Virus record (IMG/VR): IMGVR_UViG_3300008266_011056
Source of the DNA: an uncultured virus (IMG/VR IMGVR_UViG_3300008266_011056)
Lineage: Duplodnaviria; Heunggongvirae; Uroviricota; Caudoviricetes
DNA length: 20,000 nucleotides
Reading direction: 5' to 3' (one strand)
Under the pieces are notes generated by a model, which saw only the letters and a program-made list of their open reading frames with translations, searched no databases and was not told the origin of the DNA. A program made the translations under genes and the position numbers. Of this stretch, positions 4,106-20,000 are shown in pieces; position 1 is the stretch's first letter, and each line of letters opens with the position of its first letter.

Positions 4106-4114
4106 AAAATAACC

Positions 4115-6368: not shown

Positions 6369-6586
6369 TATTTTGCCTCCTTATTAAAAGTTTTTTCAAC
6401 TACTGCTTTTGCTGCAGCACCAGTTACATCATACCAAGTTTTTGTAACTTGTTTTGTAAAAGATGTTTGAGCATCAACAAATTGTTGAAGAGGCTTGCGA
6501 ACTGTTTCTTCTTTGATGAAGGTGTTTAGCCAAGCAGACTTGCTTGACTGAATGGCATCGATAGCCATGTCAGCGTAATACAACAT
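6368..6586 (-). CDS. Small amphipathic helical protein (phasin-like by inference), 72 aa
   Basis: Start reassigned to ATG 6586 behind AAGGAG (6598-6593): MLYYADMAIDAIQSSKSAWLNTF...FVDAQTSFTKQV... TAATG overlap with hsp20. Confidence 0.75.
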   Translation of the reverse strand: MLYYADMAIDAIQSSKSAWLNTFIKEETVRKPLQQFVDAQTSFTKQVTKTWYDVTGAAAKAVVEKTFNKEAK

Positions 6587-6691
6587 AGTTTTCTCCTTGT
6601 TAAGCGAGTTGTAGTCAGTAAAACCTATCCAATTGGCATAGGTCGGACAGTTTTGATCTCCTTGTCCAGGGAGGTTCCCCATCCCGAGGAA
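6579..6691 (-). promoter_or_regulatory. Structured 5' leader: 5' hairpin, H-type pseudoknot, second hairpin and ROSE-like SD-sequestering hairpin
   Basis: TTCCTC-GGGAT-GGGGAA (6691-6675); CTCC/GGAG crossed with GGACA/TGTCC (6673-6645); ACCTAT(G)CC-AATT-GGATAGGT (6643-6623); CTC(G)CTT-AAC-AAGGAG (6608-6593). The segment is visibly GC-richer than other intergenic DNA. Confidence 0.7.
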
Positions 6692-6697
6692 TCCGAT

Positions 6698-6726
6698 ATT
6701 ATATATGCTTATTCTTCGTAATCCAG
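6698..6726 (-). promoter_or_regulatory. Putative promoter for the leader-hsp20 unit
   Basis: Perfect TATAAT (6703-6698) with a weak -35 CTGGAT at 17 nt spacing. The predicted start (~6691) coincides with the first hairpin. Confidence 0.5.
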
Positions 6727-7140
6727 TTTCTTCTTACCAATATTATACTTAGTTTGAAGTTCCCAGTCATCCTTATCCTTGAAGGCAATTACTTTAATCT
6801 GCGATAAAGGTGCAAGATCTGAGAAGTTATTTGGGTTTAAAATTTTTACTAGACCCCAGTCAGACAATAATTTTGCAATAGTATTACGTCTTTGTAAATC
6901 GTTATCGGTTAAATCTGTACTCTTACCGTCTAATGCAAATAATTCCTTAAAGTGTACAATGTAATATTTACCTTGCTTATGTAATATATGACAGGATTGA
7001 TATAAAATTTTATCTTTCCTAGATGCAACCCCTATTCTAGTTAGCGTTTCACGTACTTTAAGAAAATCATCTGGCTGCACTAAAGTTACTTCTAATGGCG
7101 TGTAGCCTGGAATATCTACACGAAAAAAATCATTTGACAT
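6709..7140 (-). CDS. regA: Translational repressor RegA
   Basis: PDDFLKVRETLTRIGVASRKDKILYQSCHILHKQGKYYIVHFKELFALDGK...RRNTIAKLLSDWGL...KYNIG. Start taken at ATG 7140. Confidence 0.97.
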   Translation of the reverse strand: MSNDFFRVDIPGYTPLEVTLVQPDDFLKVRETLTRIGVASRKDKILYQSCHILHKQGKYYIVHFKELFALDGKSTDLTDNDLQRRNTIAKLLSDWGLVKILNPNNFSDLAPLSQIKVIAFKDKDDWELQTKYNIGKKKLDYEE

Positions 7141-7585
7141 CACTTCCACCCTTTTTTAATTTTTGTTTTAAATGATCTATCTGTGAATCGGATAGAATAG
7201 AAAGGGCTTGGCGAGCTTTTTCAGTGCTGTAACCATAGTAATCTTTAACTATATCTATCGCTTCAATTCTCTGAGCCTTGATCCATTTATTGAATCTCTT
7301 ACGTGGCCTGATGATATTTATAAGAAAATCAAATTGCAGTTTCTTATCCAGATGCGGTCTTGAATTCATCTCGTTTGCTTGAATTACCGTATCTGAACCG
7401 AAGGATAGACCTTTATTAATAACGTACGAATTGTACTGTTTTTCTGACCATTCATCTACAATAAGATTATCTTTGCCAAACGAGATAGCATTGATAAAAT
7501 CAAACGGAGAAATAGCAGGTGGTTTTTCTTCCACTTGCTTGATAACCTCTACTGGTTTTCCGAATACATCATTAATATCGGTCAT
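7130..7585 (-). CDS. gp62: Clamp loader small subunit
   Basis: SPFDFINAI, INKGLSF..DTV..ANEMN, QFDFLINIIRPRKRF.KW, YYGYSTEKARQAL. Located between gp44 and regA. Confidence 0.95.
   Translation of the reverse strand: MTDINDVFGKPVEVIKQVEEKPPAISPFDFINAISFGKDNLIVDEWSEKQYNSYVINKGLSFGSDTVIQANEMNSRPHLDKKLQFDFLINIIRPRKRFNKWIKAQRIEAIDIVKDYYGYSTEKARQALSILSDSQIDHLKQKLKKGGSDVK
7315..7322 (-). promoter_or_regulatory. T4 late promoter consensus TATAAATA inside gp62, pointing at regA
   Basis: Exact TATAAATA on the minus strand, about 175 nt upstream of the regA ATG. It could be a by-product of the codons for L-I-N-I. Confidence 0.35.
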
Positions 7586-7767
7586 GCTCGAAGCACCCAG
7601 TCTTCCGCTTTATCCTCTGCCTCTTGTAAACGATCACAAAAATATTCCATTGACGTTTCAAAGTAACTATCAAAGCATGTTACTCTGTAAGCATCACCTC
7701 TGGCTAATACTAGGGCCGTTCTTTGACCGTCATCAGACGTATGTTTGCTGATTTCTTTAACACTCAT
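7582..7767 (-). CDS. Small hypothetical protein inserted between gp44 and gp62
   Basis: 61 aa with ATGA overlaps at both ends, a GGAGG RBS inside the gp44 end, and C-terminal AEDKAEDWVL. Confidence 0.8.
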   Translation of the reverse strand: MSVKEISKHTSDDGQRTALVLARGDAYRVTCFDSYFETSMEYFCDRLQEAEDKAEDWVLRA

Positions 7768-8696
7768 TTTACCTCCACCGATGCCATTATTTCAGTTAGA
7801 CATGCAATTAAGTTAATCTCTTGGTCGCTCACAAATGCAGATTTATACTGATAGTCTGCAATAGTAAGTACCAGGTTAGGAACTTGATTAGTTAGTGGTA
7901 GAACATTATCGTATATTTTTCTGAATAGGGTAGCAGGATCATTGTCCATGTTGTTAGCTACCCATGTTCGCATTTTTTTCCAATCTTTTTCTTTTAGTGA
8001 ACTAATCAGTTCCTCAATATTAGCATCACCTGTGCTAGTTAGTATACCTTCATCAATAGCACCTATTTGAGAATAACGTTGCAACTCATTTAGTGTCCTG
8101 CGGAAGTCAGGGAAAAATTTCTCTACTACTCTAGCTACTACTACTTTACTATAAGTTACATTCTCCTTAGCGAGAATATTAGTTACTCTTTCAAAAAACT
8201 CTGCAGCAATTTTTTGCTTTTCATTTTTAGGAATCTTAAATTCTACTACAGCACATCTACTATGAAGTGCAGGTATAATTCTATTTTTTAGATTACAAGT
8301 AAGAATGAACCTACAATTATTAGCGAACTCTTCCATAAACCGTCTCAAAGCCGGTTGAGTGGAGTTAGGATTTAAATAATCTGCTTCATCTAATATAACA
8401 ACCTTAGTATTACCCGTGAACGAGATTGTAGATGCAAAGTCTTTAATCTTAGTTCTAAGAACATCAATACCAGATTCTTCTGATCCATTAATAATGATGT
8501 AATCTGTCTTTAGTTCTTCGCATAATGCACGTGCAATTGTTGTCTTACCTGTACCTGCAGTACCAGTTAGAAGTAAGTTCTGTATTTCACCTGACTTTGC
8601 AAATTGATGAAATATAGCTTTTAAATTTTTAGGTAAGATACATTCAGAAATAGTTTTGGGTCTATATTCCTCTACCCATAAAAAATGTTTTTCCAT
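7764..8696 (-). CDS. gp44: Clamp loader large subunit (AAA+, RFC-like)
   Basis: LWVEEYRPKTISECILP, Walker A GTAGTGKTT, INGSEE.GID, Walker B ILDEAD, LHSRC and FPDFRR.LNELQRY. Confidence 0.97.
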   Translation of the reverse strand: MEKHFLWVEEYRPKTISECILPKNLKAIFHQFAKSGEIQNLLLTGTAGTGKTTIARALCEELKTDYIIINGSEESGIDVLRTKIKDFASTISFTGNTKVVILDEADYLNPNSTQPALRRFMEEFANNCRFILTCNLKNRIIPALHSRCAVVEFKIPKNEKQKIAAEFFERVTNILAKENVTYSKVVVARVVEKFFPDFRRTLNELQRYSQIGAIDEGILTSTGDANIEELISSLKEKDWKKMRTWVANNMDNDPATLFRKIYDNVLPLTNQVPNLVLTIADYQYKSAFVSDQEINLIACLTEIMASVEVK

Positions 8697-8698
8697 AA

Positions 8699-9370
8699 TT
8701 AAAGAATTGAATCAGGTTCACAGGCAATCCAATACTGAAGCTGTCTTGACATATGCTTGAAGTATAAAAATTTAGCTTTACCTTTAGGAATCTTTGATAC
8801 TGATACTTCATATGCATCAGGAATCACTTTAAGATTTTCAACAGCAATAAAGACATCAAATGGTTCAAAGCATGTACCTACTTCTTTCTTAAAGTTAGAA
8901 GAAGTAGGGTTCTTTCTATCACCTACAGATAAAACTACTGACTGATCTCTACTGGTAACTGAGATAGATGGCGCACTAGTAATAGAAGCGGCTTTCATAA
9001 TCATCTGTACATCTTCAGCTGTCAAAGTAAACCTATAAACGTCTACTTGATCGATAGTACCTGTAGGTGCCGCAACTACTGTCTCGGGATCTGAATAAAA
9101 ATATTCGAACTTACCAGCCGGGCTACTAATAGACACGGACTTATCGTTAAATTCTACTTCTTGATTTTCAACAATAGTCATCATTGCTAGTAACGAGTTT
9201 AGTTCGTAAATAGCAAATTCGTTAGGTATTGTTTCTTTGATCTGAGCTTTTGCAAACACACTTCTTGACGCTGAGATAGTACTAATCATATCCCCAGGTC
9301 TAAAAAGCATGTTCATATTAATTGAAGCAAAGTTTTTTAGTAATGCGAGTGTCTCGCTACTTATTTTCAT
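8699..9370 (-). CDS. gp45: Sliding clamp (DNA polymerase processivity factor)
   Basis: Start reassigned to ATG 9370 (GAGGA RBS): MKISSETLALLKNFASIN...FAIYELNSLL...ENLKVIPDAYEV...YWIACEPDS. Lies directly upstream of gp44. Confidence 0.95.
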   Translation of the reverse strand: MKISSETLALLKNFASINMNMLFRPGDMISTISASRSVFAKAQIKETIPNEFAIYELNSLLAMMTIVENQEVEFNDKSVSISSPAGKFEYFYSDPETVVAAPTGTIDQVDVYRFTLTAEDVQMIMKAASITSAPSISVTSRDQSVVLSVGDRKNPTSSNFKKEVGTCFEPFDVFIAVENLKVIPDAYEVSVSKIPKGKAKFLYFKHMSRQLQYWIACEPDSIL

Positions 9371-10074
9371 AATGTATCCTCTTCGGGTATTTGAAATTCT
9401 TCCATTGGTAGGAAAACGCAATTTCTGTCACGGTAATATTGTTTGTTATAATAATACGTAATGTGTTTGTCACCTTCTTTAATTAAAGACTTATCCCATA
9501 AAACGAGAACCTCTTTGTTGAGAAGATCCCCTATCACCGAAATACCTGTAATGGTAGAAAGTAAGGGGTTAGGAGATGCCTTGATCAAACCGGCATTGAA
9601 TGCAACAGTATTATTATAATCTAAAAAGTGGCATTTATCTAGCGGAAATTTTCCTGTCGATGCTAGAAAATTTGTAGATGATTTGTCGCCTACCAGATAC
9701 TTGTCCTGGATTGGCTCTACATCAGGTACATTAAGAACAAAACTATTATCTATTTCAAAATCTATATTGTACCTGGCTTTAAAATCCTGTTCTAGTCTAA
9801 GAGTTTCGAAAGGAACATTAGGGTCGGCTTTAAAGTTGTCGAATCGAGAAATAGTTTGATAACTATCATCAATAGCTGCTTCGTATTCAAACTTAAACGC
9901 AGCAATACAATCCTGCATATGCATGAACTCTTTAAGCCCGTTGAATACCATCATGTCGTTTCTTACAACGAGGGAAATTTTGTGTCCGGTAGATTTGTAG
10001 ATACCGGATAGGACGGGTAATACGTTTAAAGTTTGACTGAGCTTACCGCTCGATGTCATGAAAATTCTAATCAT
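9367..10074 (-). CDS. Putative GT-B/GT9 (heptosyltransferase)-like protein
   Basis: The N-terminal GKLSQTLNVLPVLSGI and C-terminal LIKAS...STITGISVIGDLLNKEVLVLW echo GT9 motifs (lGD...alP.l and lI......s.dsG..h.a.al......l). ATGA overlap with gp45. The family call is tentative. Confidence 0.5.
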   Translation of the reverse strand: MIRIFMTSSGKLSQTLNVLPVLSGIYKSTGHKISLVVRNDMMVFNGLKEFMHMQDCIAAFKFEYEAAIDDSYQTISRFDNFKADPNVPFETLRLEQDFKARYNIDFEIDNSFVLNVPDVEPIQDKYLVGDKSSTNFLASTGKFPLDKCHFLDYNNTVAFNAGLIKASPNPLLSTITGISVIGDLLNKEVLVLWDKSLIKEGDKHITYYYNKQYYRDRNCVFLPMEEFQIPEEDTL

Positions 10075-10098
10075 AATTAAAATACCACAAAAAGTAAA

Positions 10099-10824
10099 TT
10101 ATATAAGTTTATGCTCAACTACTCCATTATATTTGTCAATACAGTACTGTCTCTCCTTTGCGTCTAGCTCTCTTAAGTCAGGTCTCCTAAATGCTGAGTC
10201 GCCATGATCTCTAAAACAAACTAAAATTTCATTAAGTAGAATTGGATCACCGTAATGATAATAAGAACGATAGAAATATTCACCATCTACTATCCATACT
10301 AAGTTTTCATCCATCTCTAACGCACATTCTCGTCTAACAGTATAGTTGGATGGATTACCTGTTGTGTTATCACCATTCACATGCTTATTACCATACCATG
10401 GAAGCCTAGCATCGTAATATTTTGATTTATCTTCTGAGCAGTGTATAAAACCTGAAATTAACCACTTGTTATTAGGATTGTTTTTAAAATTTTCGTTTAT
10501 AATATGCAGAGCATTTTGATTAACAAAAAAATCATCCATGTAAAGTAGTTTTAAAAGTTCTCCTTTAGCATATTTAATTCCATGATTGACATTATTAGCT
10601 GCATTCTTTACATTAGAAGTATTCCTAACGTATGTTATATCTAAAACTTTTTCAAAAACTTTAACAATGTCTAAATTTGAGTCATCCGTGCTTTGATCTG
10701 AAATAACTACTTCAAAATCTTTAAATGTTTGCTCAGATAAGTTTGAAAGATACTGAATAAGAAACTTTTCATTCAAGTTATCTTTCATTCTGTATACAGG
10801 GCATACTATAGAAAATCTAGGCAT
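10099..10824 (-). CDS. Glycosyltransferase family 2
   Basis: PRFSIVCPVY, QTFKDFEVVISDQSTD, NHGIKYAKGE, LLYMDDFF, GNPS and WIVDGEYFYR. Confidence 0.92.
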   Translation of the reverse strand: MPRFSIVCPVYRMKDNLNEKFLIQYLSNLSEQTFKDFEVVISDQSTDDSNLDIVKVFEKVLDITYVRNTSNVKNAANNVNHGIKYAKGELLKLLYMDDFFVNQNALHIINENFKNNPNNKWLISGFIHCSEDKSKYYDARLPWYGNKHVNGDNTTGNPSNYTVRRECALEMDENLVWIVDGEYFYRSYYHYGDPILLNEILVCFRDHGDSAFRRPDLRELDAKERQYCIDKYNGVVEHKLI

Positions 10825-11531
10825 TAAACTACCTCAGCTTTAGAAAAGTAGTTGGTGTAAAATTCATGGTAAAGTCTATCTCGTGTAGTAATATGCTCTC
10901 TACCAAACCCTTGTGCTTTGTCGCTTTCAGGTATACGTGTCTGGATTTGTAGTTTACGAGTTAAAGTCTGCTCATTAAACGGTGACCAACCATACCAAAG
11001 AATTTCAAGTTCATCTGTAGTGGGGTCTGTATCGTAATGTCTACCTAACGGGTATTTTATATTTTTTTGTTTATGAATACACCTTGGTCTTCTATTTTTA
11101 AAACCAGGGGTAGAGTTATACTTAATACCATGAGGTTTTTGTTCTACTAATGATAAGTTATGATTAGGCTGCGTCAATGGATCTTTATCTACCATAGTAT
11201 GACAAGGCAGGATAAAAGAATCAGCCGACGCTTTGTCTAAAATATCAAAATTACCTCTAATAAATTCAGTAGTGTTTAGACAAATACGCCAGCCATCAAT
11301 ATTTTTTTCAATATCCATTACTTCTTCGTCAATCAACCTAGCATCAAACATTTCATTTCTAGACGGGATGATTGTCCAGTCAGGACATATCTGTTTGATG
11401 ATTTCAACTGACCGATCTGTAGATGCGTAGTCAATTAAGATACCGTGATAAAAGTATTTCTTATGATGATTTAACCACCAGGGTAAGAGATACTCTTCGT
11501 TATAAAAATGAGTAATAATAGTTCTGTACAT
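10824..11531 (-). CDS. GT-A fold glycosyltransferase-like protein (GT2_4-type)
   Basis: FYNEEYLLPWWLNHHK, ILIDYASTDRSVEII, WRICLNTTEF (degenerate DxD position) and YPLGRH. Confidence 0.8.
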   Translation of the reverse strand: MYRTIITHFYNEEYLLPWWLNHHKKYFYHGILIDYASTDRSVEIIKQICPDWTIIPSRNEMFDARLIDEEVMDIEKNIDGWRICLNTTEFIRGNFDILDKASADSFILPCHTMVDKDPLTQPNHNLSLVEQKPHGIKYNSTPGFKNRRPRCIHKQKNIKYPLGRHYDTDPTTDELEILWYGWSPFNEQTLTRKLQIQTRIPESDKAQGFGREHITTRDRLYHEFYTNYFSKAEVV

Positions 11532-11533
11532 AA

Positions 11534-13432
11534 TTAATTTTCTAATATCTTTACTTCAGGAAAATATCTAAGAAATATAACGTCTTTACTCTTACGGTTC
11601 AATACTTTAGTTCGTATCTCATCAAAGAAGTTCCATGCCAGAGGCACAATACATACTTTTGTTTCTTCCTGCAATATAGCATCTGGATGTTTAATTAAAA
11701 TCTTTGACCCGGGTGAATACAGACCTTGCTTAAGAGGATTATCATCTACAATATAATCTAAGTTAAACTTTGCAAAATTTAAGAATGTATTACCTTTAGC
11801 TGCTGCACCATAACCAATCATCTTGTAACCGTCTCTCTTTAATTGTAGAATCTTATCCGAAGTAGCTTGAGCTATTTCTTTACAATTTTTTGCATACCTT
11901 AACATCTTAAAGTATGTTAGATCCTCTTCAGGGGTATATGAAGCCTCGGAAGATTCTTTACCTAAGACGAAAACAAAACTAGTACCGTGTACAGGTGTTC
12001 TCTGTATATCAATAAGTTTTAACCCTGCCCTTTTAGCTAATGCATGAAATGATTTCTCACTAAAGAAAGAGATATGCTCATGATAGATAGTATCGAATTC
12101 GTTATTCCTTACCATATTAGCTTGAGAAGTCTGAATGAAAATTCTACCATTATCTGACAAATTATTCTTACATATCTCTAAAAACTCTTTAGGGTAAGTA
12201 TTATGTGCAAATACGTTTTGTGCAATAATTATATCAAACTTAGTATTCAACTTACCTATAGAATCTTCTGTAAGATAGTCACAGACGATATTATGGTTTT
12301 TAGAGCTTAGTGGATATAAGTTCACAGCAGGGTCAATGCCAAAAGTACTATATCCCTTTACTTTAAATGAATCTAATTGCGTGCCATCATTACAAGCAAT
12401 ATCAAGAACAGTCTTACCATCAACGTATTGCTTAGAAAAATCTACAAACCAATCAAAATAATCTTTAAGTGTCTTTGTTGTACCACTAACGTACAGATAA
12501 TTTTTAAATAGTAAATCAGGGTTAACTGAATGAGTAAGTTGTATGTGAGTACAGTCGTGGCAGTAGTTGATAGCTAGAGGATACACCCATTCAGCTTCGT
12601 TAATATAATTTAAGTAGCTATTAGCTAGAGGTTGATTATTGAGATCCAGTATTTTTTCTAGATTTGTACCATTACAACATAAACAATGTGTAAGCTCTTC
12701 ACAGTTATTGTGGTCAACACTAATAATATTACTAACCTCTTCTTTAGAAGATTCATTCCAACGTCTATGAGACCCGGCTACGTAATGTATACCCATTATT
12801 TCATTGTCGTCGTTTTTAAAATAACAACAACCATAGTTTTGAGAGTCTGTCTTCCAGTTTAAGGTTTTAATATTATTATCTAGAATGTGTTTTCTAATTC
12901 TATAACCTACCTCAACGAAACCTTCAGCTTTATTTGTATTAACTTCTTCCGGGGTAATTACCCAGCTTTGACTAGTAGCTAATTCTCTAGTATAGTAAGC
13001 ACCAAAGCAGCAAGGAATATTTTCGAAGTTCTTAGGGTTAATATTGACCCAGGCTTTAGTATCTTTACCATCATTGTACTCGCAGCCTACAGCTTGATAC
13101 CCCTCAGCAAACTTCTTAAAAACATACTCATGAATATTATTGGACAGGAAGAAGAAATCGGAATCAATAATACCAACAATATCGGAAGTACAATGCTTTA
13201 ACCCTTCATTAATAGCATGGCCGTGAGATACACCATCAAATGTAGGAACACTATCTAATAAAACTAGTTTATCGATGATAGGGTCGACATCAATAGTTTG
13301 TTTATTTTCGTTTGGTGTGTTATCTACAACGATTAACCTATAATCTTTCTTTGGTAATCTAGTCTTAAAGTTTTTAACTTGAAGATCTAAAAGATCATAA
13401 TTGTTGTAAATTACAATAAGGTAATCAATCAT
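11534..13432 (-). CDS. Fusion: N-terminal GT2-like domain plus NDP-sugar C-methyltransferase (Zn-binding, SAM-binding and C-terminal domains)
   Basis: N-terminal IVVDN...HGHAINEGL...IIDSDFF, followed by CLCC/LNNQPLANSY/CHDC Zn sites, VLDIACNDGTQL, GIDPA, AQNVFAH, FDTIYHEHISFFS, GYGAAAKGNTFLN, DDNPLKQG and LAWNFFDEI. Confidence 0.92.
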   Translation of the reverse strand: MIDYLIVIYNNYDLLDLQVKNFKTRLPKKDYRLIVVDNTPNENKQTIDVDPIIDKLVLLDSVPTFDGVSHGHAINEGLKHCTSDIVGIIDSDFFFLSNNIHEYVFKKFAEGYQAVGCEYNDGKDTKAWVNINPKNFENIPCCFGAYYTRELATSQSWVITPEEVNTNKAEGFVEVGYRIRKHILDNNIKTLNWKTDSQNYGCCYFKNDDNEIMGIHYVAGSHRRWNESSKEEVSNIISVDHNNCEELTHCLCCNGTNLEKILDLNNQPLANSYLNYINEAEWVYPLAINYCHDCTHIQLTHSVNPDLLFKNYLYVSGTTKTLKDYFDWFVDFSKQYVDGKTVLDIACNDGTQLDSFKVKGYSTFGIDPAVNLYPLSSKNHNIVCDYLTEDSIGKLNTKFDIIIAQNVFAHNTYPKEFLEICKNNLSDNGRIFIQTSQANMVRNNEFDTIYHEHISFFSEKSFHALAKRAGLKLIDIQRTPVHGTSFVFVLGKESSEASYTPEEDLTYFKMLRYAKNCKEIAQATSDKILQLKRDGYKMIGYGAAAKGNTFLNFAKFNLDYIVDDNPLKQGLYSPGSKILIKHPDAILQEETKVCIVPLAWNFFDEIRTKVLNRKSKDVIFLRYFPEVKILEN

Positions 13433-14306
13433 ATTTAAAATAACTGTCTCGTTTTACTGGGTTACATTTATCTTGTCTGATATTATTAATTAAGTTGAGA
13501 ATAATTTCTTCTTCTGTTTCTAAAAATTGAAAATTATACCTATATTTAAACTTATCGGAGTTTATAGAAAAGTTGTAAGGGTGAGATGTACTACCTAAAT
13601 CAACCAGCTGCGCGTCTGTAATGGTACATACTTTTTTAGCTACATCTTCTACTGTTGTATTAAAAGAAGAAAGATTGTATATTCCTGAGCTAGGTTTATC
13701 CACTACAATTGCATTTACAGCATTACAAAGGTCATTGATACCCAAAATAGGTCTGTTAATTTCTTTATTGCTTATGAAAACTTGTCTTCTTAGATACGAA
13801 GACCAAACCATAGAGTTAATCATTAGGTCAATTCTTAAAGTACTAGATACACCGTTTACAGTACCGAATCTTAATCCCGTAATGTATCTACCTTCAGCCA
13901 TATGTTTAATTGCTAACAAATCTAAAGCTGATTTAGTAAGATCGTAGTTGTTTACATAATCAAACGAGGTATCGGACTCTACGTAAATCTTTTCGTTTCT
14001 ATTACCGTAAACAGATGAGCTGCTTGCGTAGATAACCGGGATGCTAGGATTAATTTTCTTTAAGAGATTGTCAAAGTTGCGAACATTATTATTCCATGGA
14101 GAGGACAAATCTCCAATACACATCTGTACACTAGAATGGCCTGCTAGTAAAATTATATGTGTAAATTGATTTAAAAACTCTGGTGATAGGTTATTGTAAT
14201 CATCGTCTCTTTTACCTATAGGTATAGCAGAAATATTTTTATCATGAAAGTATTTGGTTAAAGCACTTCCGATGTATCCGTGCCCACCTATGATCAATAT
14301 ATTCAT
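13425..14306 (-). CDS. NAD-dependent nucleotide-sugar epimerase/dehydratase/reductase (extended SDR)
   Basis: ILIIGGHGYIG, YASSSSVYG, catalytic YDLTK (YxxxK), LRFGTVNG and RPILGINDL. Confidence 0.92.
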   Translation of the reverse strand: MNILIIGGHGYIGSALTKYFHDKNISAIPIGKRDDDYNNLSPEFLNQFTHIILLAGHSSVQMCIGDLSSPWNNNVRNFDNLLKKINPSIPVIYASSSSVYGNRNEKIYVESDTSFDYVNNYDLTKSALDLLAIKHMAEGRYITGLRFGTVNGVSSTLRIDLMINSMVWSSYLRRQVFISNKEINRPILGINDLCNAVNAIVVDKPSSGIYNLSSFNTTVEDVAKKVCTITDAQLVDLGSTSHPYNFSINSDKFKYRYNFQFLETEEEIILNLINNIRQDKCNPVKRDSYFKYD

Positions 14307-15376
14307 TTAAAATTGTTCAGTGTATAAATAATGTGTTCTTTATCTTGTGACGATACCCACCACCCATTAGGAATACATATCTGAGTATCAGTAAAAGAAT
14401 CTACACCTGGTAGAATACCTTCGCTGAAGTGAATAGTGCTATCGTAATGATCATTTCTAAAATGAACTGGGCTTGATGCTATGCCATTATCTTGAAGATA
14501 TTTTGTAAACCTGTCTTTGTGACCTGCTTTTACATGCATGCTGAATAACCAGTAGGAGCATGTCTCATCCCAAGTGGGTAGGGTTAGTAATTCATTTTTA
14601 ACCCTGTTAATATAATCATAAGAGTTTAGTCTACTAGCTAGTACAGAGTTTCTAGCTTCAGGTATATTTGTAATACCAATGGATGCATTAACATCATTCA
14701 TATGATATTTGAAACCTACCTGTGTAATGTTTTGCGTACATCTGAAGGATTCATTTTTAGTACGGTCTAGTCCATACCACCTTAAAATTCTTGCATCAGC
14801 TTCTTTATCTGCAGGGCAAATTAGAATACCTCCATCTGCTGTAGTCAAAAACTTGATTGCTTGAAAACTATAACAGATGTAATCACCACGTACAACATCT
14901 TTATCGTTGAATACATCCCAGCAATGTGCAGCATCTTCAATTACAGGTACACCAAATGTTTTAAGTGTACTATAGTCACAAAATTTACCAGCCCAGTTAA
15001 CTGCTACAATGGCTTTTGTTTTATCTGTGATTAGCTTTTTAACAGATTCGGGATCAATAAGACCTGTAATAGGGTCTATATCAGCCCAGCGAATTCTAGC
15101 TTTGCGATGAATAATGTGAACGTTAGATGCAAAGCAAGTTTGAGGTGTTGTAATAACCTCATCACCGGGTTCAACTTTACAAAGTTCTAAAGCAAGATCA
15201 ATTGCCGATGTACAGGAGTTAACTGTTACCGGTCTGGTTTTACACTTTAATTCTTTCTGAAGTAGATCTTCAAACTCTTCTACTACTGGCCCTTGCCCTA
15301 CGAATCCTGAGCTTAATACCTTAGCAACCTTGTCAGCTGCTTTGTCTGACATACCGACTTTAAATAACGGAATCAT
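14303..15376 (-). CDS. DegT/DnrJ/EryC1/StrS PLP-dependent sugar aminotransferase
   Basis: GQGPVVEEFE, VNSCTSAIDLAL, GDEVITTP, IEDAAH, SFQAIKFLTTADGG (PLP lysine) and GFKYHMND. Confidence 0.95.
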   Translation of the reverse strand: MIPLFKVGMSDKAADKVAKVLSSGFVGQGPVVEEFEDLLQKELKCKTRPVTVNSCTSAIDLALELCKVEPGDEVITTPQTCFASNVHIIHRKARIRWADIDPITGLIDPESVKKLITDKTKAIVAVNWAGKFCDYSTLKTFGVPVIEDAAHCWDVFNDKDVVRGDYICYSFQAIKFLTTADGGILICPADKEADARILRWYGLDRTKNESFRCTQNITQVGFKYHMNDVNASIGITNIPEARNSVLASRLNSYDYINRVKNELLTLPTWDETCSYWLFSMHVKAGHKDRFTKYLQDNGIASSPVHFRNDHYDSTIHFSEGILPGVDSFTDTQICIPNGWWVSSQDKEHIIYTLNNFK

Positions 15377-15821
15377 ACCTGTACTCCATAGAAAAGATTC
15401 TATCGTTCACCTCACCTGTTGTAACAAACCCTAGCTTCTCGTATGTTTTAAGAGCACGCGTATTTGTTTTAAGAACTTCTAGTCTTATAGGTAGTTGTTT
15501 ATTACAATTATCGATCAAGAACTTAAATAAAGGTGTTCCTAAACCCTTATCTCTATAGTCTGGTGTCAAACCTCCTGTAAGGAGGTATTGATCTTCTTCT
15601 AAATGTATGACACCAAACCCTGCATTAACTACAACCGCACCATGCTCGATAGCATAAGCAATATATAGTTCATATTTTTTAAACGCAGTTTTAAACCACT
15701 CAGCCTGCTGCTCAGGAGTAATATATTCCGTACTACGTGTCATGTAGTCTTTACATTCATTACGAATAGTACGCAATATCTCAGCTTCTGCAGGGGTGGT
15801 TACTCGTTTAAACACTAGCAT
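15360..15821 (-). CDS. GNAT-family N-acetyltransferase (PseH-like context)
   Basis: IRNECKDYMT..ITPEQQAEWF, acetyl-CoA motif PDYRDKGLGT and LEVLKTNTRALKTYEKLGF. Confidence 0.9.
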   Translation of the reverse strand: MLVFKRVTTPAEAEILRTIRNECKDYMTRSTEYITPEQQAEWFKTAFKKYELYIAYAIEHGAVVVNAGFGVIHLEEDQYLLTGGLTPDYRDKGLGTPLFKFLIDNCNKQLPIRLEVLKTNTRALKTYEKLGFVTTGEVNDRIFSMEYRYDSVI

Positions 15822-16765
15822 AAAAATACCTCATTAAATTTTTTCATCACCTTGTCTGGACTAAACTCTGCTACTCTTTGAGTCCAGTCTTGTTTAATGT
15901 CTTTAATATTTTTTAAGATATAAAAGAAGTCATCCTCATTATTATATAAGGTATCGCTATTTTTTAACATATCTAAATGGTTTTTGTCATGACCACCATT
16001 CCATGCAATTACCGGTTTGTTTAGATACAGAAATTCTGCAATAGATAGTCCAAAAGACTCACCTCTATATCTTGCATGTATCATTGCATCACATGTATTA
16101 ATGAAATTAGCTTTCTTCTGTAGATCGTGAATTTCGTTAATGAACTTAATGTTAGGGTGATCTGAAAAAGGCTGGGTACCTACAAATAAAAATACATAAC
16201 GGTCGTCAGTATTAACTAATTTGAGAATACTATCTCTAACAGACTCAATATCAAATGTAAAGTAACCACCATACCTACCAATCACTATTTTATCTTTAGG
16301 AATATCTAAGTACCCTTTAAAGTCCCCATTAGGTTCTGGTAACTTAACAATATGTGGTACGTAAGGTATCTCTCCCTGTGACATCTCATCAGATAACCAT
16401 TTAGAGATATACGCATACCTATCTCCATGAGGTTGATTAAACTGAAATACCGAATGTACTGCAGTCTTACAGTTAGTTGGTAAAGGTTCTTTTTGCCCTG
16501 AACGAATAAAGTAAGCGAGATCAATTTGCTCTTTAGAAATAATAGCTTCTAAATCGCCTTCTCTATACCCAATTACATTAAAGTCTTTTTTAAGACGATC
16601 AATAACTGCTTGCTCTGAACCCATATCTTTCTCATAACCTAGGCTATGATTGTAAGCTATGACAGATTCATTACCAAATATTTCCTGATTGTAGCGAGCA
16701 TAGTCTGTTATGGCAACAGTTGTACCCCTGTAGTTTAATGTATTAGCATGAAATAAAATTTTCAT
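15815..16765 (-). CDS. GT-B fold glycosyltransferase (GT4-like)
   Basis: RGTTVAITDYA, VIGRYGG and FINTCDAMIHARYRGESFGLSIAEF..LNKPVI (ExFG....E motif). Confidence 0.9.
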   Translation of the reverse strand: MKILFHANTLNYRGTTVAITDYARYNQEIFGNESVIAYNHSLGYEKDMGSEQAVIDRLKKDFNVIGYREGDLEAIISKEQIDLAYFIRSGQKEPLPTNCKTAVHSVFQFNQPHGDRYAYISKWLSDEMSQGEIPYVPHIVKLPEPNGDFKGYLDIPKDKIVIGRYGGYFTFDIESVRDSILKLVNTDDRYVFLFVGTQPFSDHPNIKFINEIHDLQKKANFINTCDAMIHARYRGESFGLSIAEFLYLNKPVIAWNGGHDKNHLDMLKNSDTLYNNEDDFFYILKNIKDIKQDWTQRVAEFSPDKVMKKFNEVFLC

Positions 16766-17445
16766 CTAACTATTTTTCCTTTGTAGTTAAACGTTGTTGA
16801 AGATGTCATATGTTCGGTTGAGAAGGTATTGTTAATAATTTCACTACATCGCTTAACAAATAACTCAATATTTTGAGCCATACGTGACTGATAAAGATGA
16901 TAGACGGTATCTTCAAAGACTGTACCAATACCGTAGTAACCAAGGTTACTTAAGGGCCATAACCCCTCACCAGGTTCCCCTTCAAAGTAAGTTGGTCGTA
17001 ATGCCCGGTAACGAATGCCTTTTTCTTCTGCAATATAACTTATTTCTTCTGCTGTATCTGATCGATATGTTTCTGTAAATGAAGGGCAGTTTAATTCATT
17101 ATAAAGTTTGGTAGGCATCACGTAGAAACCTGGTGCTGCATAGATGTGACTTTTAGGTGGTATATGATTGGATACTTGTGCGATACCTACAAACGTATTA
17201 TTCTTATACGCGTATCTAATAATGTCCAAAACTTTTTGCTTATCTAGTATAACACAATCTGGTTCAATAGTTACTACTACATCTGATTTAGATTCACTAT
17301 GAATCACCTGCATCCAGGTGCCATGATTCCAATTAAGGTTATGGTAATTGACAGGTATGTCAAAATGCTTCATAACTGACTTATGAGCATCTAACATATC
17401 TTTATTGACGTTGTCCCAATGCAGGGAATTAAATTCTACTTTCAT
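16762..17445 (-). CDS. Putative GT-A-like protein
   Basis: Start reassigned to ATG 17445 (GAGGAGGAG RBS). It has HGTWM, a DxD-like VVVTIEPDCV, YAAPGFY and VYHLYQSR. Family is tentative. Confidence 0.6.
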   Translation of the reverse strand: MKVEFNSLHWDNVNKDMLDAHKSVMKHFDIPVNYHNLNWNHGTWMQVIHSESKSDVVVTIEPDCVILDKQKVLDIIRYAYKNNTFVGIAQVSNHIPPKSHIYAAPGFYVMPTKLYNELNCPSFTETYRSDTAEEISYIAEEKGIRYRALRPTYFEGEPGEGLWPLSNLGYYGIGTVFEDTVYHLYQSRMAQNIELFVKRCSEIINNTFSTEHMTSSTTFNYKGKIVR

Positions 17446-17463
17446 TAAGCTCCTCCTCACTAC

Positions 17464-17493
17464 ATTATATATAGGCAACAAGAAAAGCGCCAC
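17464..17493 (-). promoter_or_regulatory. Putative promoter of the glycan/replication operon
   Basis: TATAAT (17469-17464) in an intergenic gap just upstream of a strong RBS. The -35 (GTGGCG, 18 nt spacer) is poor. Confidence 0.5.
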
Positions 17494-17498
17494 TTAAT

Positions 17499-18344
17499 TT
17501 ATTTTTTTAAGTATAACCATTCACTGTGACTACCATTGACCTTGTTAAAGTAGCTTTCAAATGTTTCAGCTGGAAAGAGTAAATTATATGTTTTAAAGCT
17601 TTTTTTCATAAAGATTTCGTTAAAAGCTTTTTGCCATTCTTGATTATAAACTAATTTATTAAAGAATATATCTTTTTCAGAGTTATTGTTAGGTAGTTGA
17701 AAGAGAGAAATTATATATTCAAGATTGCAAAATTTAAATACATTACATACATATAAAAAATTGCTTTCATTAATTTTAATATTATTTTTTGCTAGTTTAA
17801 AGAAGCGAAATATGTTATGGAAATGTTTAGACTCATCTATTAAGAGTTTATGAAAAAACTTCTTAATATCCTCATCTTGTGTATGTTTATAGATCAAATA
17901 CAGACATGTCCAAAAGTTACATTCACCGAGATGGTAGAAAAGCAGCACATCCAATAATGGATATCGATCGACGAATTCTTTAGAAAAATCTTCCAGATAT
18001 TGTTTTCGCTCTTTTGTAATATTGAAATTAATTTTTTTAGATAAAAAATCTTCTAACAATAATGAATGACCACGTTCCTCTTCACTCATCTCTTGTAAGA
18101 AATGTTGTAGGGTTGTAATGTGGTCTAAACCGATAGTATTAATATCACTTAAATAATTTTTGTTTTTAATGTTTTCAGAAATAAGTGAGTAAACTAAAGT
18201 GGCTTGATATTCCCCTACATATAGATAGTTAACAAGTTCTGCAAAAAAGTTTTTTTCGAACTGCGAGAATTCGTCACCAAAATATTTTTTCAGGTCATCA
18301 GAAAAAATAGATTCTTTTAAAGAAAGAGGATTAGATAAGTTCAT
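17499..18344 (-). CDS. Ferritin-like superfamily diiron protein (function unknown)
   Basis: Four-ligand pattern E(VGEYQA)...EEERGH...E(LGECNF)...DESKH. The likely start ATG 18344 has no SD. The sequence is visibly AT-richer than its neighbours. Confidence 0.75.
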   Translation of the reverse strand: MNLSNPLSLKESIFSDDLKKYFGDEFSQFEKNFFAELVNYLYVGEYQATLVYSLISENIKNKNYLSDINTIGLDHITTLQHFLQEMSEEERGHSLLLEDFLSKKINFNITKERKQYLEDFSKEFVDRYPLLDVLLFYHLGECNFWTCLYLIYKHTQDEDIKKFFHKLLIDESKHFHNIFRFFKLAKNNIKINESNFLYVCNVFKFCNLEYIISLFQLPNNNSEKDIFFNKLVYNQEWQKAFNEIFMKKSFKTYNLLFPAETFESYFNKVNGSHSEWLYLKK

Positions 18345-18347
18345 TTT

Positions 18348-18371
18348 AAAAAATGGGCCTTTCGGCCCATT
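18348..18371 (-). terminator. Rho-independent terminator after rubrerythrin
   Basis: TGGGCC-GAAA-GGCCCA followed by TTTTTT, a few nt after the stop codon. Confidence 0.88.
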
Positions 18372-18375
18372 AACT

Positions 18376-18810
18376 TTAAGTATCTGACAAGTGTTTATCC
18401 AAAGCTTTTTGATAACGATTAGCATGACTACGTTCTGCTTTAGCTAATGTCTCAAACCAGTCGGCTACTTCATCAAAACCTTCTTCACGTGCAGTTTTAG
18501 CCATACCAGGATACATGTCTGAATACTCATGTGTCTCTCCTGCAATAGCTGCTTCTAGCATTTGACGGGCATTCTTTGCTGGCATGCTGGTACCAGGTTC
18601 ACCAGCTCCACCCTCAATCAAGTACTCCATATGACCATGGGCGTGACCAGTTTCACCTTCAGCTGTAGAACGGAACAATGCTGCTAGATCATTCTCACCT
18701 GCAATGTCACATTGGTTTGCAAAATACAAATAACGGCGGTTAGCCATCGATTCACCCGCAAAAGCTTCTTTCAAACATTCTGCAGTTTTAGTTCCTTTTA
18801 AACTACTCAT
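18376..18810 (-). CDS. rbr: Short rubrerythrin (erythrin; diiron domain only, no rubredoxin domain)
   Basis: [88 protein letters not shown]. Confidence 0.95.
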
Positions 18811-18829
18811 AATATCTCCTTAATGTAAA

Positions 18830-18913
18830 TGGTACCCGGAGCCGGACTCGAACCGGCACGCCTTTCGGCGAAGGATTTTAAGTCCTTTGTGTCTACCATT
18901 TCACCACCCGGGC
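18830..18913 (-). tRNA. tRNA-Leu (TAA)
   Basis: GCCCGGGTGGTGAAATGGTAGACACAAAGGACT-TAA-AATCCTTCGCCGAAAGGCGTGCCGGTTCGAGTCCGGCTCCGGGTACCA, with a long variable arm and encoded CCA. Confidence 0.96.
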
Positions 18914-18915
18914 AT

Positions 18916-18991
18916 TGGTGCCGGTTGCAGGACTCGAACCCACCACCTGATGATTACAAATCAACTGCTCTACCTGATGAGCTAAACCGGC
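18916..18991 (-). tRNA. tRNA-Thr (TGT)
   Basis: GCCGGTTTAGCTCATCAGGTAGAGCAGTTGATT-TGT-AATCATCAGGTGGTGGGTTCGAGTCCTGCAACCGGCACCA, with one T:T mismatch in the anticodon stem. Confidence 0.94.
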
Positions 18992-19465
18992 TTATGCTGC
19001 TAACAACTCTTTAAGCCTATCTGCAGCGTAACTTGCTGCAAATGCATTAGGTTTAACAAGAGGCACTACGTTACATACACCTCTAATATAACCTACGGCT
19101 TGTTGTATAACAATACTACTATTATAGTGTTCATCGGGATTAATATCCAGATGTATCTCTACATTCCGGTCCCCGATTACGTCTACTAACTTCTGATACA
19201 TCTCTGCTACTTTGTAAACTTCATTCATTAAACGTAATGACGGTTTACTTGCTTTAGCATCATAATCTACTTCTGTTTGTACCTCTCCAAAAATTTTACA
19301 ACCATGTCTACCATCAATATGAACTACTACTGCTAATGTGTAATCTGCGTACCATATTTTACCTACTTTATATCGATCAGAATCAGCACCAATGTAAATT
19401 TTTGTTTCAGGGCTTTGCTTATCAATAAAAGCTTTTACTTCTTCGATATCTAACTGTCTACGCAC
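18992..19465 (-). CDS. YkuK/DUF458 RNase H-like nuclease family protein
   Basis: KIYIGADS, AVVVHIDG.HG, RLMNEV, EIHLDIN and KPNAFAASYAADR. GTG start with AAGGAG RBS. Confidence 0.85.
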   Translation of the reverse strand: MRRQLDIEEVKAFIDKQSPETKIYIGADSDRYKVGKIWYADYTLAVVVHIDGRHGCKIFGEVQTEVDYDAKASKPSLRLMNEVYKVAEMYQKLVDVIGDRNVEIHLDINPDEHYNSSIVIQQAVGYIRGVCNVVPLVKPNAFAASYAADRLKELLAA

Positions 19466-19478
19466 GATTACTCCTTAT

Positions 19479-19552
19479 TGGAGCGGAGTAGGAGAATCGA
19501 ACTCCTCGCTTTAGCTTGGAAGGCTAAGGTATTACCACTATACGAACTCCGC
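19479..19552 (-). tRNA. tRNA-Gly (TCC)
   Basis: GCGGAGTTCGTATAGTGGTAATACCTTAGCCT-TCC-AAGCTAAAGCGAGGAGTTCGATTCTCCTACTCCGCTCCA. Confidence 0.95.
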
Positions 19553-19554
19553 GT

Positions 19555-19812
19555 TTATGTAAAAAATGTTTCAATAATTTCCGGTTTTAGTATACCAGGT
19601 TTCTGACCATGTTTATCATAGTCGGGATGAAGAACTAGTGCCCAAGCTTTTTCAACAGCGTCTGGAATTAAGTAATCATAATCGTTACCAAAAAAAGCTG
19701 TTCCTTTAAGCATTTCAATACACTGATCTTTATTTTCCGCTATAACAGCCCACATACCACCATACTCAGATGACGGAAAAGGTACCCAGTATTCACCGAT
19801 ATAAACTTTCAT
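19555..19812 (-). CDS. Phage hypothetical protein
   Basis: 85 aa, AAAGG RBS, motif YWVPFPSSEYGG.W.VIA. Confidence 0.8.
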   Translation of the reverse strand: MKVYIGEYWVPFPSSEYGGMWAVIAENKDQCIEMLKGTAFFGNDYDYLIPDAVEKAWALVLHPDYDKHGQKPGILKPEIIETFFT

Positions 19813-19823
19813 GTTAACCTTTC

Positions 19824-19897
19824 TGGCTCCGGAGGAGGGAATCGAACCCCCACTAACGGTTTTGGAGACCGCCGCACTGCCATTATACTACTCCGGA
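19824..19897 (-). tRNA. tRNA-Trp (CCA) with atypical acceptor stem
   Basis: TCCGGAGTAGTATAATGGCAGTGCGGCGGTCT-CCA-AAACCGTTAGTGGGGGTTCGATTCCCTCCTCCGGAGCCA. Confidence 0.92.
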
Positions 19898-20000
19898 ATC
19901 TTTTTAATAAGAGGATTATCAATAGGTTCATCTACATAAGCACCTATCTCATCACTAATTCTCATCATTTCATCTAAAGCTTTTTCTCTTTTTTTATTTC
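19888..20000 (-). CDS. 3' end of a hypothetical protein (starts beyond the right edge); its stop codon lies inside tRNA-Trp
   Basis: Manual translation gives ...NKKREKALDEMMRISDEIGAYVDEPIDNPLIKKIPE*, with TAG at 19890-19888. Confidence 0.65.
   Translation of the reverse strand, partial: NKKREKALDEMMRISDEIGAYVDEPIDNPLIKKIPE

Follow-up and report, generated by a model that had tools for sequence, protein, structure and literature searches.

What does a T4-like phage build with nine consecutive sugar genes placed directly ahead of its sliding clamp gene, and which molecule receives the product? The question is raised by a 20,000-nucleotide stretch of DNA (hereafter, the window) from an uncultured virus (IMG/VR record IMGVR_UViG_3300008266_011056), in which nine minus-strand open reading frames (ORFs), all co-oriented and here called g1 to g9, occupy positions 9367-17445. 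A DegT aminotransferase, a GNAT acetyltransferase, a short-chain dehydrogenase/reductase (SDR), a C-methyltransferase and six glycosyltransferase (GT) domains are packed into these 8.1 kb. We propose that the genes would form a wholly cytoplasmic glycan assembly line in a freshwater T4-like myovirus, and as the acceptor we tentatively prefer virion proteins of the phage itself. We assign a probability of about 0.4 to this statement as a whole, with the virion acceptor included, and regard the enzymology taken by itself as highly probable.

Genome-wide checks were made on the virus record G001 (165,076 bp; direct terminal repeats; CheckV completeness 100), which matches the window at 99.97% identity over 19,824 bases, the window being the reverse complement of approximately positions 1246-21069 of G001. 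This alignment covers window 1-19824 and then jumps, such that window 19887-20000 corresponds to G001 585-698; the jump lies near the 114-bp terminal repeat and represents either a rearrangement or an assembly difference. G001 is a T4-like myovirus that carries gp45, gp44, gp62, regA, gp43, gp41, gp32, gp59, UvsX/Y/W and gp55, as well as gp33-like, gp23, gp20, gp18 and baseplate genes. The closest relatives of its gp44 are those of Methylophilales phage Melnitz (62%) and Pelagibacter phage Mosig (58%), both Kyanoviridae. Among the 20 listed runs that contain window DNA, the labels are lake water, freshwater and, in some cases, 'fungus metagenome', and none is an RNA run. A megablast search of the cluster and the remaining window against 50,697 phage records gave no match. 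Relatives were collected by scanning IMG/VR with g6, which yielded 164 relatives among 182 pattern matches; 80 loci (79 non-identical, given L numbers here) were kept and compared by tblastn of the window proteins.

The proposed route would start from a host nucleoside diphosphate (NDP)-4-keto-6-deoxyhexose, or an NDP-4-keto-pentose. In one branch, the Zn-dependent 3-C-methyltransferase of g6 and the SDR g5, acting as a 4-ketoreductase, would produce an NDP-3-C-methyl-6-deoxyhexose. In the other, DegT g4 and GNAT g3 would produce an NDP-4-acetamido-4-deoxy sugar, which may be C-methylated as well. Six soluble GT domains (g1, g2, the N-terminal part of g6, g7, g8 and g9) would then assemble an oligosaccharide on an acceptor that can be reached from the cytoplasm. 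The enzyme families and folds, the conserved catalytic residues, the synteny and the lack of membrane proteins are observed; within this scheme we infer the substrates, the division into two branches, the co-expression with replication genes and the acceptor.

Gene g6 (11534-13432, minus strand, as are all coordinates of cluster genes below) encodes a fusion of a GT2 domain with a C-methyltransferase. Its C-terminal half (residues ~245-632; 11534-12700) is predicted to be a TylC3/TcaB9-type sugar 3-C-methyltransferase. PF08421 (58.3 bits), PF13489 (70.9 bits) and PF08484 (84 bits) all match above their cut-offs, and a match to the solved TylC3-type D-mycarose 3-C-methyltransferase 4rv9 (6.7e-51) spans residues 245-609; TcaB9 (6.5e-40) and 5t64 (1.8e-38) are matched as well. 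Residues C250, C253, C291 and C294, which by analogy with TcaB9-type enzymes we take to be zinc ligands, are invariant in 40 of 40 sequences. The same is true of Y450-H-E-H453, presumably the active-site segment, which aligns with 'tiyheh' of 4rv9.

The product of g5 (13425-14306; 293 aa) is an extended SDR of the reductase/epimerase type (PF01370, 65.8 bits). A profile made from 25 sequences best matches 6vo6, a 'putative sugar-nucleotide epimerase/dehydratase' (1.3e-30), on whose function nothing relevant was found in the literature. All 29 sequences compared share G7/G10/G13, S95/S96, Y121 and K125, and the S-Y-K triad lies in the context YASSSSVYG...YDLTK. Although dTDP-glucose dehydratases are among the profile matches, g5 carries SSSSVYG in place of TDE, the motif of 4,6-dehydratases, and we judge it unlikely to be an enzyme of that kind. 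By these motifs g5 would instead be a 4-ketoreductase. The g5 motif, together with a conserved trio of SDR, C-methyltransferase and GT genes (see below), suggests C-3 methylation of an NDP-4-keto sugar followed by 4-ketoreduction and transfer, which is the order of events in mycarose-type routes.

For the amino-sugar branch, g4 (14303-15376; 357 aa) encodes a DegT/DnrJ/EryC1 pyridoxal phosphate (PLP)-dependent NDP-sugar aminotransferase, matching PF01041 at 189.3 bits against a cut-off of 19.8. Its nearest solved relatives are 4zwv/4xau ('putative aminotransferase', ~1e-61), CalS13 (1.8e-46) and ArnB. All 18 sequences compared retain D148 as well as K175, which is presumably the PLP lysine as judged from the SF-x-x-x-K motif. 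The protein scores below all NCBIfam equivalog cut-offs (PseC, ArnB, WecE, DesI and LegC; 147.9/423.5, 144.6/631, 115.4/375 and 80/650 bits), and therefore no specific sugar can be assigned. The models and structures that g4 matches are solely those of C-4 aminotransferases (PseC, ArnB, WecE-type and CalS13), and this, coupled with a 17-nt overlap with the GNAT gene g3, suggests a 4-acetamido sugar. The latter gene (15360-15821; 153 aa) matches PF13673 (39.2 bits) and PF00583 (34.7 bits), with a weak match to PseH (7e-6, far below cut-off). A g3 homologue directly precedes a DegT homologue in all 15 of the other loci that have g3, and this pairing points to a role for g3 in sugar N-acetylation.

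The complete 165-kb genome has no match to the PF00483 nucleotidyltransferase family, and its sole other sugar SDR is GalE-like (258 bits). This UDP-glucose 4-epimerase-like gene, which falls just short of the TIGR01179 cut-off (262 bits), is found at L008:12461-13414 (L008 and L009 denote stretches of G001), inside the preQ1 island discussed below. Given no nucleotidyltransferase match and no recognizable 4,6-dehydratase, the host must supply the NDP-sugar precursor. SDR-C-methyltransferase-GT and DegT-GNAT groups are found apart as well as together, and thus two branches fit at least as well as one sugar. A preliminary description of this DNA, made from the letters alone, had proposed a phage operon that tailors a single sugar bearing amino, N-acetyl and C-methyl groups. 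The tailoring operon is upheld by the enzyme identities, the intact catalytic residues and the synteny, and the tailoring enzymes are all present, but their pattern of co-occurrence is matched at least as well by two separate products as by one.

The same description named a domain for each of the nine genes and counted five or six glycosyltransferases. All nine calls are borne out by profile and structure searches, and six GT domains were found, in g1, g2, g6, g7, g8 and g9. Decay of catalytic residues across homologues, which it had set out as evidence to look for against the operon, is not seen: the active-site residues of g1, g2, g4, g5, g6 and g8 are invariant.

Two of the six domains are recognized from predicted structures. 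Gene g1 (16762-17445; 227 aa) has no Pfam, PHROG or NCBIfam match, and its model (predicted local distance difference test score, pLDDT, 93.1) adopts a GT-A fold. All 50 of the VIA-align matches listed are GT-A glycosyltransferases (Z 12.0-9.9), the top one being STIV A197 (Z 12.0, root-mean-square deviation (rmsd) 3.0, 149 residues aligned). Homologues of g1 (329 of 395 candidates) are mostly 221-228 aa in length, and D63, part of an E-P-D motif, is conserved without exception in 32 sequences. We also considered a sugar nucleotidyltransferase, given that Foldseek returned KdsB and RmlA. However, neither is among the 50 VIA-align matches listed, and g1 lacks the N-terminal Gly-rich loop that is the motif of such enzymes, so this assignment was rejected. 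Gene g9 (9367-10074; 235 aa) likewise has no Pfam, PHROG or NCBIfam match (Pfam and NCBIfam at E ≤ 0.01), and none of its 46 homologues (among 319 candidates) has a precomputed Pfam domain. By its model (pLDDT 93.5), g9 is a compact GT-B protein whose fold is nearest to the GT9 heptosyltransferases WaaC (Z 14.6, rmsd 3.4, 210 of 235 residues aligned) and WaaF (Z 12.7), followed by TibC (Z 11.2), with the first match outside the GT9 fold at Z 7.5. Although g9 is ~90 residues shorter than WaaC, alignments with WaaC and WaaF cover 206-210 of its 235 residues.

The remaining four are supported by families and motifs. Gene g2 (15815-16765; 316 aa) is GT-B/GT4-like: it scores 24.9 bits with PF00534 (the GT1/GT4 family), below the cut-off of 26.4, a profile of 10 sequences has the WbaZ-1 mannosyltransferase as its sole match (E 0.005), and E236-x7-E244, corresponding to the EX7E signature of GT4 enzymes, is invariant in 10 of 10 sequences. 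The GT2 domain of g6 (residues 1-~244; 12701-13432) matches PF00535 over residues 6-119 (28.8 bits), and D37 and D90-x-D92 are retained in all seven fused forms. Gene g7 (10824-11531; 235 aa) is a GT2_4 (PF13704)-like glycosyltransferase that itself scores below the cut-off (23.6 versus 27.5 bits), although its homologues match PF13704 at E ≤ 0.01 in 31 of 31 cases. The Atlas groups g7 with clusters named 'glycosyl transferase family 2' in which viruses predominate (feature score 0.98), and the g7 structure gives a TM of 0.94 with the first match, which is likely its own cluster, and 0.92 with those that follow. Gene g8 (10099-10824; 241 aa) is a GT2 enzyme (PF00535, 46.9 bits) with D43 and D97-D98 invariant in 21 of 21 sequences, and with weak NCBIfam matches to PglI, EpsE, PgaC and TuaG that are all far below their cut-offs. 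The GT families of g1, g7 and g9 come mostly from phage-sized or viral contigs.

The cluster is conserved among relatives. In eight of the 79 non-identical loci (L022, L023, L025, L031, L042, L045, L047 and L049), g1-g8 are found in unchanged order immediately ahead of gp45-gp44-gp62-regA, and two further loci (L024 and L026) are cut by contig ends. In the syntenic loci the identities of g1-g8 (49-78%) are comparable with those of gp45/gp44 (63-76%). The divergence of the cluster thus keeps pace with that of the core genes, as expected from co-inheritance and not from recent capture, and this points to vertical inheritance. No such cluster is found ahead of gp45 in Melnitz or Mosig. The last gene, g9, is absent from the eight syntenic relatives by tblastn, the only matches being of 29-33% identity in five other loci, and g8 adjoins gp45 directly in L031, L045 and L049.

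The commonest shared unit is an SDR gene, then the C-methyltransferase, then a g7-like GT. Of the 79 loci, 30 have an SDR of the g5 type immediately ahead of the C-methyltransferase, and 38 have a g7-like gene after it. Four loci (L071, L073, L078 and L091) combine the C-methyltransferase with DegT, with or without GNAT, and have no SDR match in the fetched stretch. The GT2-C-methyltransferase fusion occurs in seven sequences, whereas elsewhere the two halves are neighbouring genes; the GT2 domain is a separate ORF of 241-244 aa in L028, L041, L045, L046 and L047. Relatives also carry additional modules. L022 (9399-10777) has an IspD/MobA-like nucleotidyltransferase with a short-chain dehydrogenase, resembling a CDP-ribitol synthase, and ORFs matching this pair in size alone occupy the same place in L047 (13319-14700). 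A FkbM methyltransferase is inserted in L031 (6481-7161), and a Methyltransf_24 gene in L028 (7157-7705). In L028, L041 and L046 the cluster adjoins a DUF6267 gene rather than gp45, with a DnaB-like helicase on the opposite side in L028 and L046. A TonB-dependent receptor gene is located just upstream of g1 in L031 (2119-4332).

The arrangement of the genes bears on when they might be expressed. The preliminary description had portrayed nine co-oriented and mostly overlapping genes, the last of which overlaps the gp45 start, and the ORF positions agree: junctions range from -17 to +24 nt, with overlaps of 4, 7, 17, 4, 8 and 1 nt and gaps of 2 and 24 nt. The TGA stop of g9 overlaps the ATG of gp45 as ATGA (9367-9370). 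The sliding clamp gene (8699-9370, minus; 223 aa; phrog_223, PF02916 and PF09116) starts at that ATG, since the phrog_223 match (3.2e-59) begins at residue 18 of a longer TTG-initiated ORF, which corresponds to ATG 9370. Thus g9 is coupled to gp45 through the ATGA overlap, and it alone among the cluster genes demonstrably so. At the opposite end, the cluster had been taken to reach 17493. The most likely start of g1 is, however, ATG 17445 and not GTG 17493, because a GAGGAGGA Shine-Dalgarno sequence (17451-17458) precedes the former and the resulting length of 227 aa matches that of most homologues.

The earlier view of one TATAAT promoter for the whole unit is weakened. A TATAAT -10-like box is present 18 nt upstream of the g1 ATG (17464-17469, minus), with the Shine-Dalgarno sequence between the two. 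However, it lacks a TTGAT-type -35 element, unlike several of the 17 other TATAAT boxes that lie in intergenic DNA no more than 80 nt from a gene start, and a promoter scan of the window did not list it. TATAAT is 3.8-fold enriched in the intergenic DNA of G001 (3.06 versus 0.80 per kb). A hairpin with a T-run, TAT(A/T)TATAAT and a Shine-Dalgarno sequence precede g1 in L022, L023, L025 and L042, and L031 has a hairpin and then TATAAT, such that the arrangement is found in five of 10 non-identical relatives. This recurrence supports a transcription unit starting at g1, and the box at 17464-17469 is a candidate promoter. Where relatives have a terminator hairpin before g1, the window has a degenerate one. 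A second TATAAT (10098-10103, minus) overlaps the g8 stop and is followed 23 nt later by the ATG of g9. Nine of 10 relatives (all except L031) retain such a box ahead of gp45, either overlapping the g8 stop or immediately beyond it, even though the stop codon and flanks differ. With TTGA(G/A)C only 9-12 nt upstream, it has no canonical -35 element, but it is possibly a separate promoter for g9-gp45, and gp45 may have a promoter of its own.

The absence of a terminator between the last gene and gp45, also part of the preliminary description, is in agreement with a terminator scan, which lists no minus-strand site at or near the g9/gp45 junction. Inside the cluster there are two weak minus-strand terminator-like sites, both within coding sequence (g6 and g5). 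Neither terminator-like sites (8 versus 5.1 +/- 2.4 in shuffles) nor promoters (48 versus 51.5 +/- 6.4) exceed the shuffled expectation.

We next consider the acceptor. None of the g1-g9 products has a membrane segment (maximum 19-residue Kyte-Doolittle mean 1.45), and in the 80 loci (1.23 Mb) at least three hydrophobic segments occur in only 12 of 1,440 ORFs of at least 100 aa. Seven of these 12 were scanned, of which six match TctA, MFS, desaturase and tetraspanin-like models and one matches nothing; no flippase, polymerase, ligase or phosphoglycosyltransferase is among them. Pfam scans of G001 likewise reveal no initiating phosphoglycosyltransferase, flippase, polymerase or ligase. A set of soluble proteins with no export machinery in these scans implies cytoplasmic chemistry, with either a lipid-linked product that is exported by the host or an intracellular acceptor.

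Between these options we tentatively favour virion proteins, because of the all-soluble make-up, the inheritance with core genes, the virus-dominated GT families, the existing precedents for virion glycosylation and the difficulty of altering a receptor during lytic infection. As far as is known, the large virus-encoded sets of sugar and GT genes whose role has been resolved by experiment serve virion glycosylation. Chlorovirus and mimivirus gene clusters glycosylate the virions of those viruses. Among phages, glycosylation of the virions of mycobacteriophages Che8, Corndog and Myrna by phage-encoded GTs is described in PMC12363180. The major capsid protein of G001, compared with that of Melnitz (66% identity) in search of an extension of the glycosylation type, is uninformative, as it has only a 12-residue Ser/Thr/Gly-rich insert at approximately residue 130.

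Several considerations weigh against this proposal. The cluster resides in the early/replication module and not among the structural genes. It is not preceded by a TATAAATA late-promoter motif, the sole exact site on that strand being inside gp62 at 7322. The fold of g9 is nearer to those of the lipopolysaccharide (LPS)-core enzymes WaaC and WaaF (Z 14.6 and 12.7) than to that of the protein heptosyltransferase TibC (11.2). Glycosyltransferases for bacterial O-antigen are likewise soluble or peripheral, and soluble GTs are compatible with a lipid-linked acceptor that is handled by host Wzx and WaaL. The hydrophobicity screen is crude, and the accompanying scan covered seven of the 12 hydrophobic ORFs. 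With regard to the chemistry, the ketoreductase role of g5 is read from motifs, and the sugar skeleton is uncertain because CalS13 and ArnB, the closest solved relatives of g4, presumably act on 4-keto-pentoses. Finally, the default interpretation in the literature, as presented in PMC7029224 and PMC7824862, is modification of the host O-chain.

That interpretation, host envelope remodelling, is in our view only slightly less probable than a virion acceptor, even though we hold it to be somewhat doubtful. The oligosaccharide would be built at the cytoplasmic face on a host lipid-linked acceptor, either an undecaprenyl diphosphate (Und-PP)-sugar or lipid A-core, and would be exported by a host flippase and ligase. 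The altered LPS, O-chain or capsule would then prevent superinfection, or would keep progeny from being lost to infected cells and debris. Such is the standing interpretation of the GT or 'LPS' clusters of pelagimyophages and cyanomyophages (PMC7029224, PMC7824862, PMC12801897), and the passages of these papers concerned with it report no experiment. In the present cluster, the WaaC/WaaF-like fold of g9 is consistent with this function, as are the weak matches of g8 and g2 to GTs for Und-PP-glycans and polysaccharides (PglI, EpsE, TuaG and WbaZ-1). The CDP-ribitol-synthase-like pair and the FkbM and Methyltransf_24 methyltransferases of relatives are of kinds typical of surface polysaccharide loci, and the very large lectin-domain (Laminin_G_3) fibre proteins in the genome make glycans plausible receptors. 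However, neither the G001 Pfam scans nor the scanned hydrophobic ORFs of the 80 loci include the initiating phosphoglycosyltransferase, flippase, polymerase or ligase of such a pathway. Furthermore, we reason that synthesis in the cytoplasm cannot change the receptors that a lytically infected, non-growing cell already displays. Strain-specific O-antigen acceptors should also favour frequent swapping of genes, whereas the cluster has diverged in step with its core neighbours.

It is less probable that the enzymes serve some other soluble product or acceptor, such as a glycosylated small molecule, a glycolipid or host proteins, for the purposes of takeover or signalling. All the cluster enzymes are soluble, and among their solved relatives are TylC3, TcaB9, the KijD1-type enzyme 5t64 and CalS13, which belong to natural-product pathways, where 3-C-methyl and 4-amino sugars are at home. 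However, Pfam scans of the genome reveal no genes for making an aglycone (polyketide synthase, nonribosomal peptide synthetase or terpene), and six GTs suggest an oligosaccharide and not a decorated aglycone.

The weakest candidate is phage DNA, and we consider it very unlikely that the GTs place unusual sugars on a modified base as a defence against restriction, given that a cluster with six GT domains and two tailored sugars goes far beyond DNA glycosylation as it is known, which involves one or two hexoses. The location of the cluster within the replication module, beside gp45, gp44 and gp62, is in favour of this idea. The preliminary description had seen no base-activating enzyme in the window and left the rest of the genome to be searched; Pfam reveals neither hmC/hmU-type (hydroxymethylcytosine or hydroxymethyluracil) enzymes nor TGT/DpdA there, but a full preQ1 set is present. 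This preQ1 (7-deazaguanine) island at ~125-134 kb of G001 (L008:5076-13936) encodes the complete route (FolE, QueD, a QueE-like protein, QueC and a bimodular QueF), which makes non-canonical bases plausible. It also includes a PF00551 formyltransferase resembling DpdN, the dPreQ1 formyltransferase proposed in PMC10516641. By contrast, the thymidylate-synthase-type hydroxymethylase (PF00303) is absent at E ≤ 1 from the complete record, in a search whose control matched 10 of 14 genomes, and the presence of ThyX, of a dCMP deaminase and of a dCTP-deaminase/dUTPase-like gene suggests that T and C are ordinary. No Pfam match was obtained for TGT/DpdA (PF01702 and PF23859). A 271-aa protein (L008:7106-7921) lies in the Atlas beside viral 'queuine tRNA-ribosyltransferase' clusters by language-model features only (0.98) and is merely a lead, as a phmmer search of the PDB with it was blank. 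Moreover, the island is ~110 kb away from the cluster. We give even less credence to the specific notion that a first sugar, or the oligosaccharide, is attached to phage DNA, for example at the aminomethyl group of 7-deazaguanine (dPreQ1), by GTs co-inherited with the replication module. To our knowledge there is no glycosylated 7-deazaguanine in DNA, and if this notion were true, glycosylated 7-deazapurine would be a class of DNA hypermodification so far undescribed. The island additionally carries a match to PF25185, 'Type I Thoeris inhibitor Tad3' (8.8e-40; L008:9913-10383).

Other genes near the cluster are of more peripheral interest. A 144-aa rubrerythrin (89 bits) and a 308-aa ferritin-like ORF (17499-18425) share 50 nt, the two together spanning window 17499-18810 (minus) between the tRNA genes and g1. 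The 308-aa ORF has weak Rubrerythrin and MiaE matches, no PDB match and no relative in the non-identical loci, and we do not count it as a member of the cluster. Weak rubrerythrin relatives (35-39% identity) are found in L025 and L057. Genes for tRNAs Leu(taa), Thr(tgt), Gly(tcc) and Trp(cca) are upstream (18830-19897, minus), and a tRNA-like sequence immediately precedes g1 in L022, L023, L042 and L045. Six kilobases downstream, a second sugar module (1930-3739, minus) consists of a 222-aa protein (phrog_11543), a GT2 enzyme (241 aa; PF00535, 44.5 bits) and a cupin (145 aa; PF07883, with a weak WbuC-family match). A tRNA-Met gene (1938-2012, minus) overlaps the last ~27 codons of the cupin ORF. 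Homologues of this module stand after hsp20 in several relatives (L023, L031, L042 and L047). Counting its GT2 enzyme with the six domains of the cluster, the phage has at least seven GT domains. Elsewhere in G001 (L009:3593-6034), a PstS-like phosphate-binding protein accompanies a phosphate-selective porin O/P.

How does the cluster compare with known systems? It does not resemble gtrABC-type O-antigen seroconversion of temperate phages: the membrane proteins GtrA, GtrB and Gtr(type) are absent from the cluster, g1-g9 have no hydrophobic segment, and the sole link is a PHROG match of g8 to 'GtrB-like' (6e-4) over the soluble GT2 domain. T-even DNA glucosylation (gp42 with the alpha- and beta-glucosyltransferases) also places GTs near the replication genes of a T4-like phage. 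However, there is no hydroxymethylase here, and six GTs and tailored sugars replace UDP-glucose with one or two transfers. For the amino sugar, the overlap of DegT with a small GNAT (17 nt) recalls WecE/WecD (dTDP-Fuc4NAc) and PseC/PseH, as do weak WecE-type, PseC and PseH matches, but the equivalog models score far below their cut-offs and the best solved relatives are CalS13, AtmS13-like enzymes and ArnB.

There are also similarities to virion glycosylation systems. The fold of g1 matches STIV A197 (Z 12.0), Mimivirus R699 (10.4) and PBCV-1 A64R (10.3), although these viral GT-A enzymes tie with cellular ones, and Mimivirus encodes an aminotransferase and an acetyltransferase for 4-amino sugars. 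The differences are that the present cluster is in the replication module and not beside capsid or tail genes, and that it is known from its genes alone. If the virion acceptor were true, phage virion glycosylation, which has been shown in mycobacteriophages, would extend to T4-like phages of Gram-negative freshwater bacteria. If the acceptor instead belonged to the host, the cluster would provide a documented case of a lytic phage that remodels the envelope.

The closest parallels are the 'LPS' or cell-wall modification clusters of T4-like cyanomyophages and pelagimyophages, such as the 15-gene cluster of P-SSM2 and those of S-SCSM1 and S-SCSM2R (as described in PMC7824862, PMC12801897 and PMC7029224). 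These also belong to aquatic T4-like myoviruses, combine co-oriented SDR epimerases and aminotransferases with GTs of several families, and differ among relatives by the insertion of modules; in both cases function is predicted from the genes. Our cluster is thus a further example of the glycan clusters already described in aquatic T4-like phages. It differs in its fixed place before gp45 in one freshwater lineage, with divergence in step with core genes, and in its TylC3/TcaB9-type 3-C-methyltransferase, fused to GT2 in seven genomes. It also has no nucleotidyltransferase or kinase, unlike the cyanophage clusters presented as 'complete' in PMC7824862, and the minimal 235-aa GT9-fold enzyme g9 is distinctive. 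A limited search by title found no literature on the combination of C-methyltransferase and glycosyltransferase in cyanophages, and we make no claim that it is unpublished. The role of 'LPS-like' glycan genes in aquatic T4-like phages has been a question since the first cyanophage genomes, and if the acceptor were identified, this lineage would offer a compact, conserved (eight syntenic relatives) and all-soluble model for addressing it.

For the C-methyl branch, the counterpart is found in the mycarose pathways (TylC3, TcaB9 and KijD1), which share the three-domain Zn C-methyltransferase with four Cys and YHEH, the adjacent SDR and the adjacent GT. The phage, in contrast, has no 2,3-dehydratase, 3-ketoreductase or 5-epimerase, such that its product would keep the 2-OH; the context is viral and not an actinomycete antibiotic cluster, and the GT2 fusion is particular to the phage lineage. 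Branched-chain (3-C-methyl) sugar synthesis, which is known mainly from antibiotic pathways, would be widespread in aquatic phages, given that 164 of the 182 pattern-matched IMG/VR stretches encode a relative.

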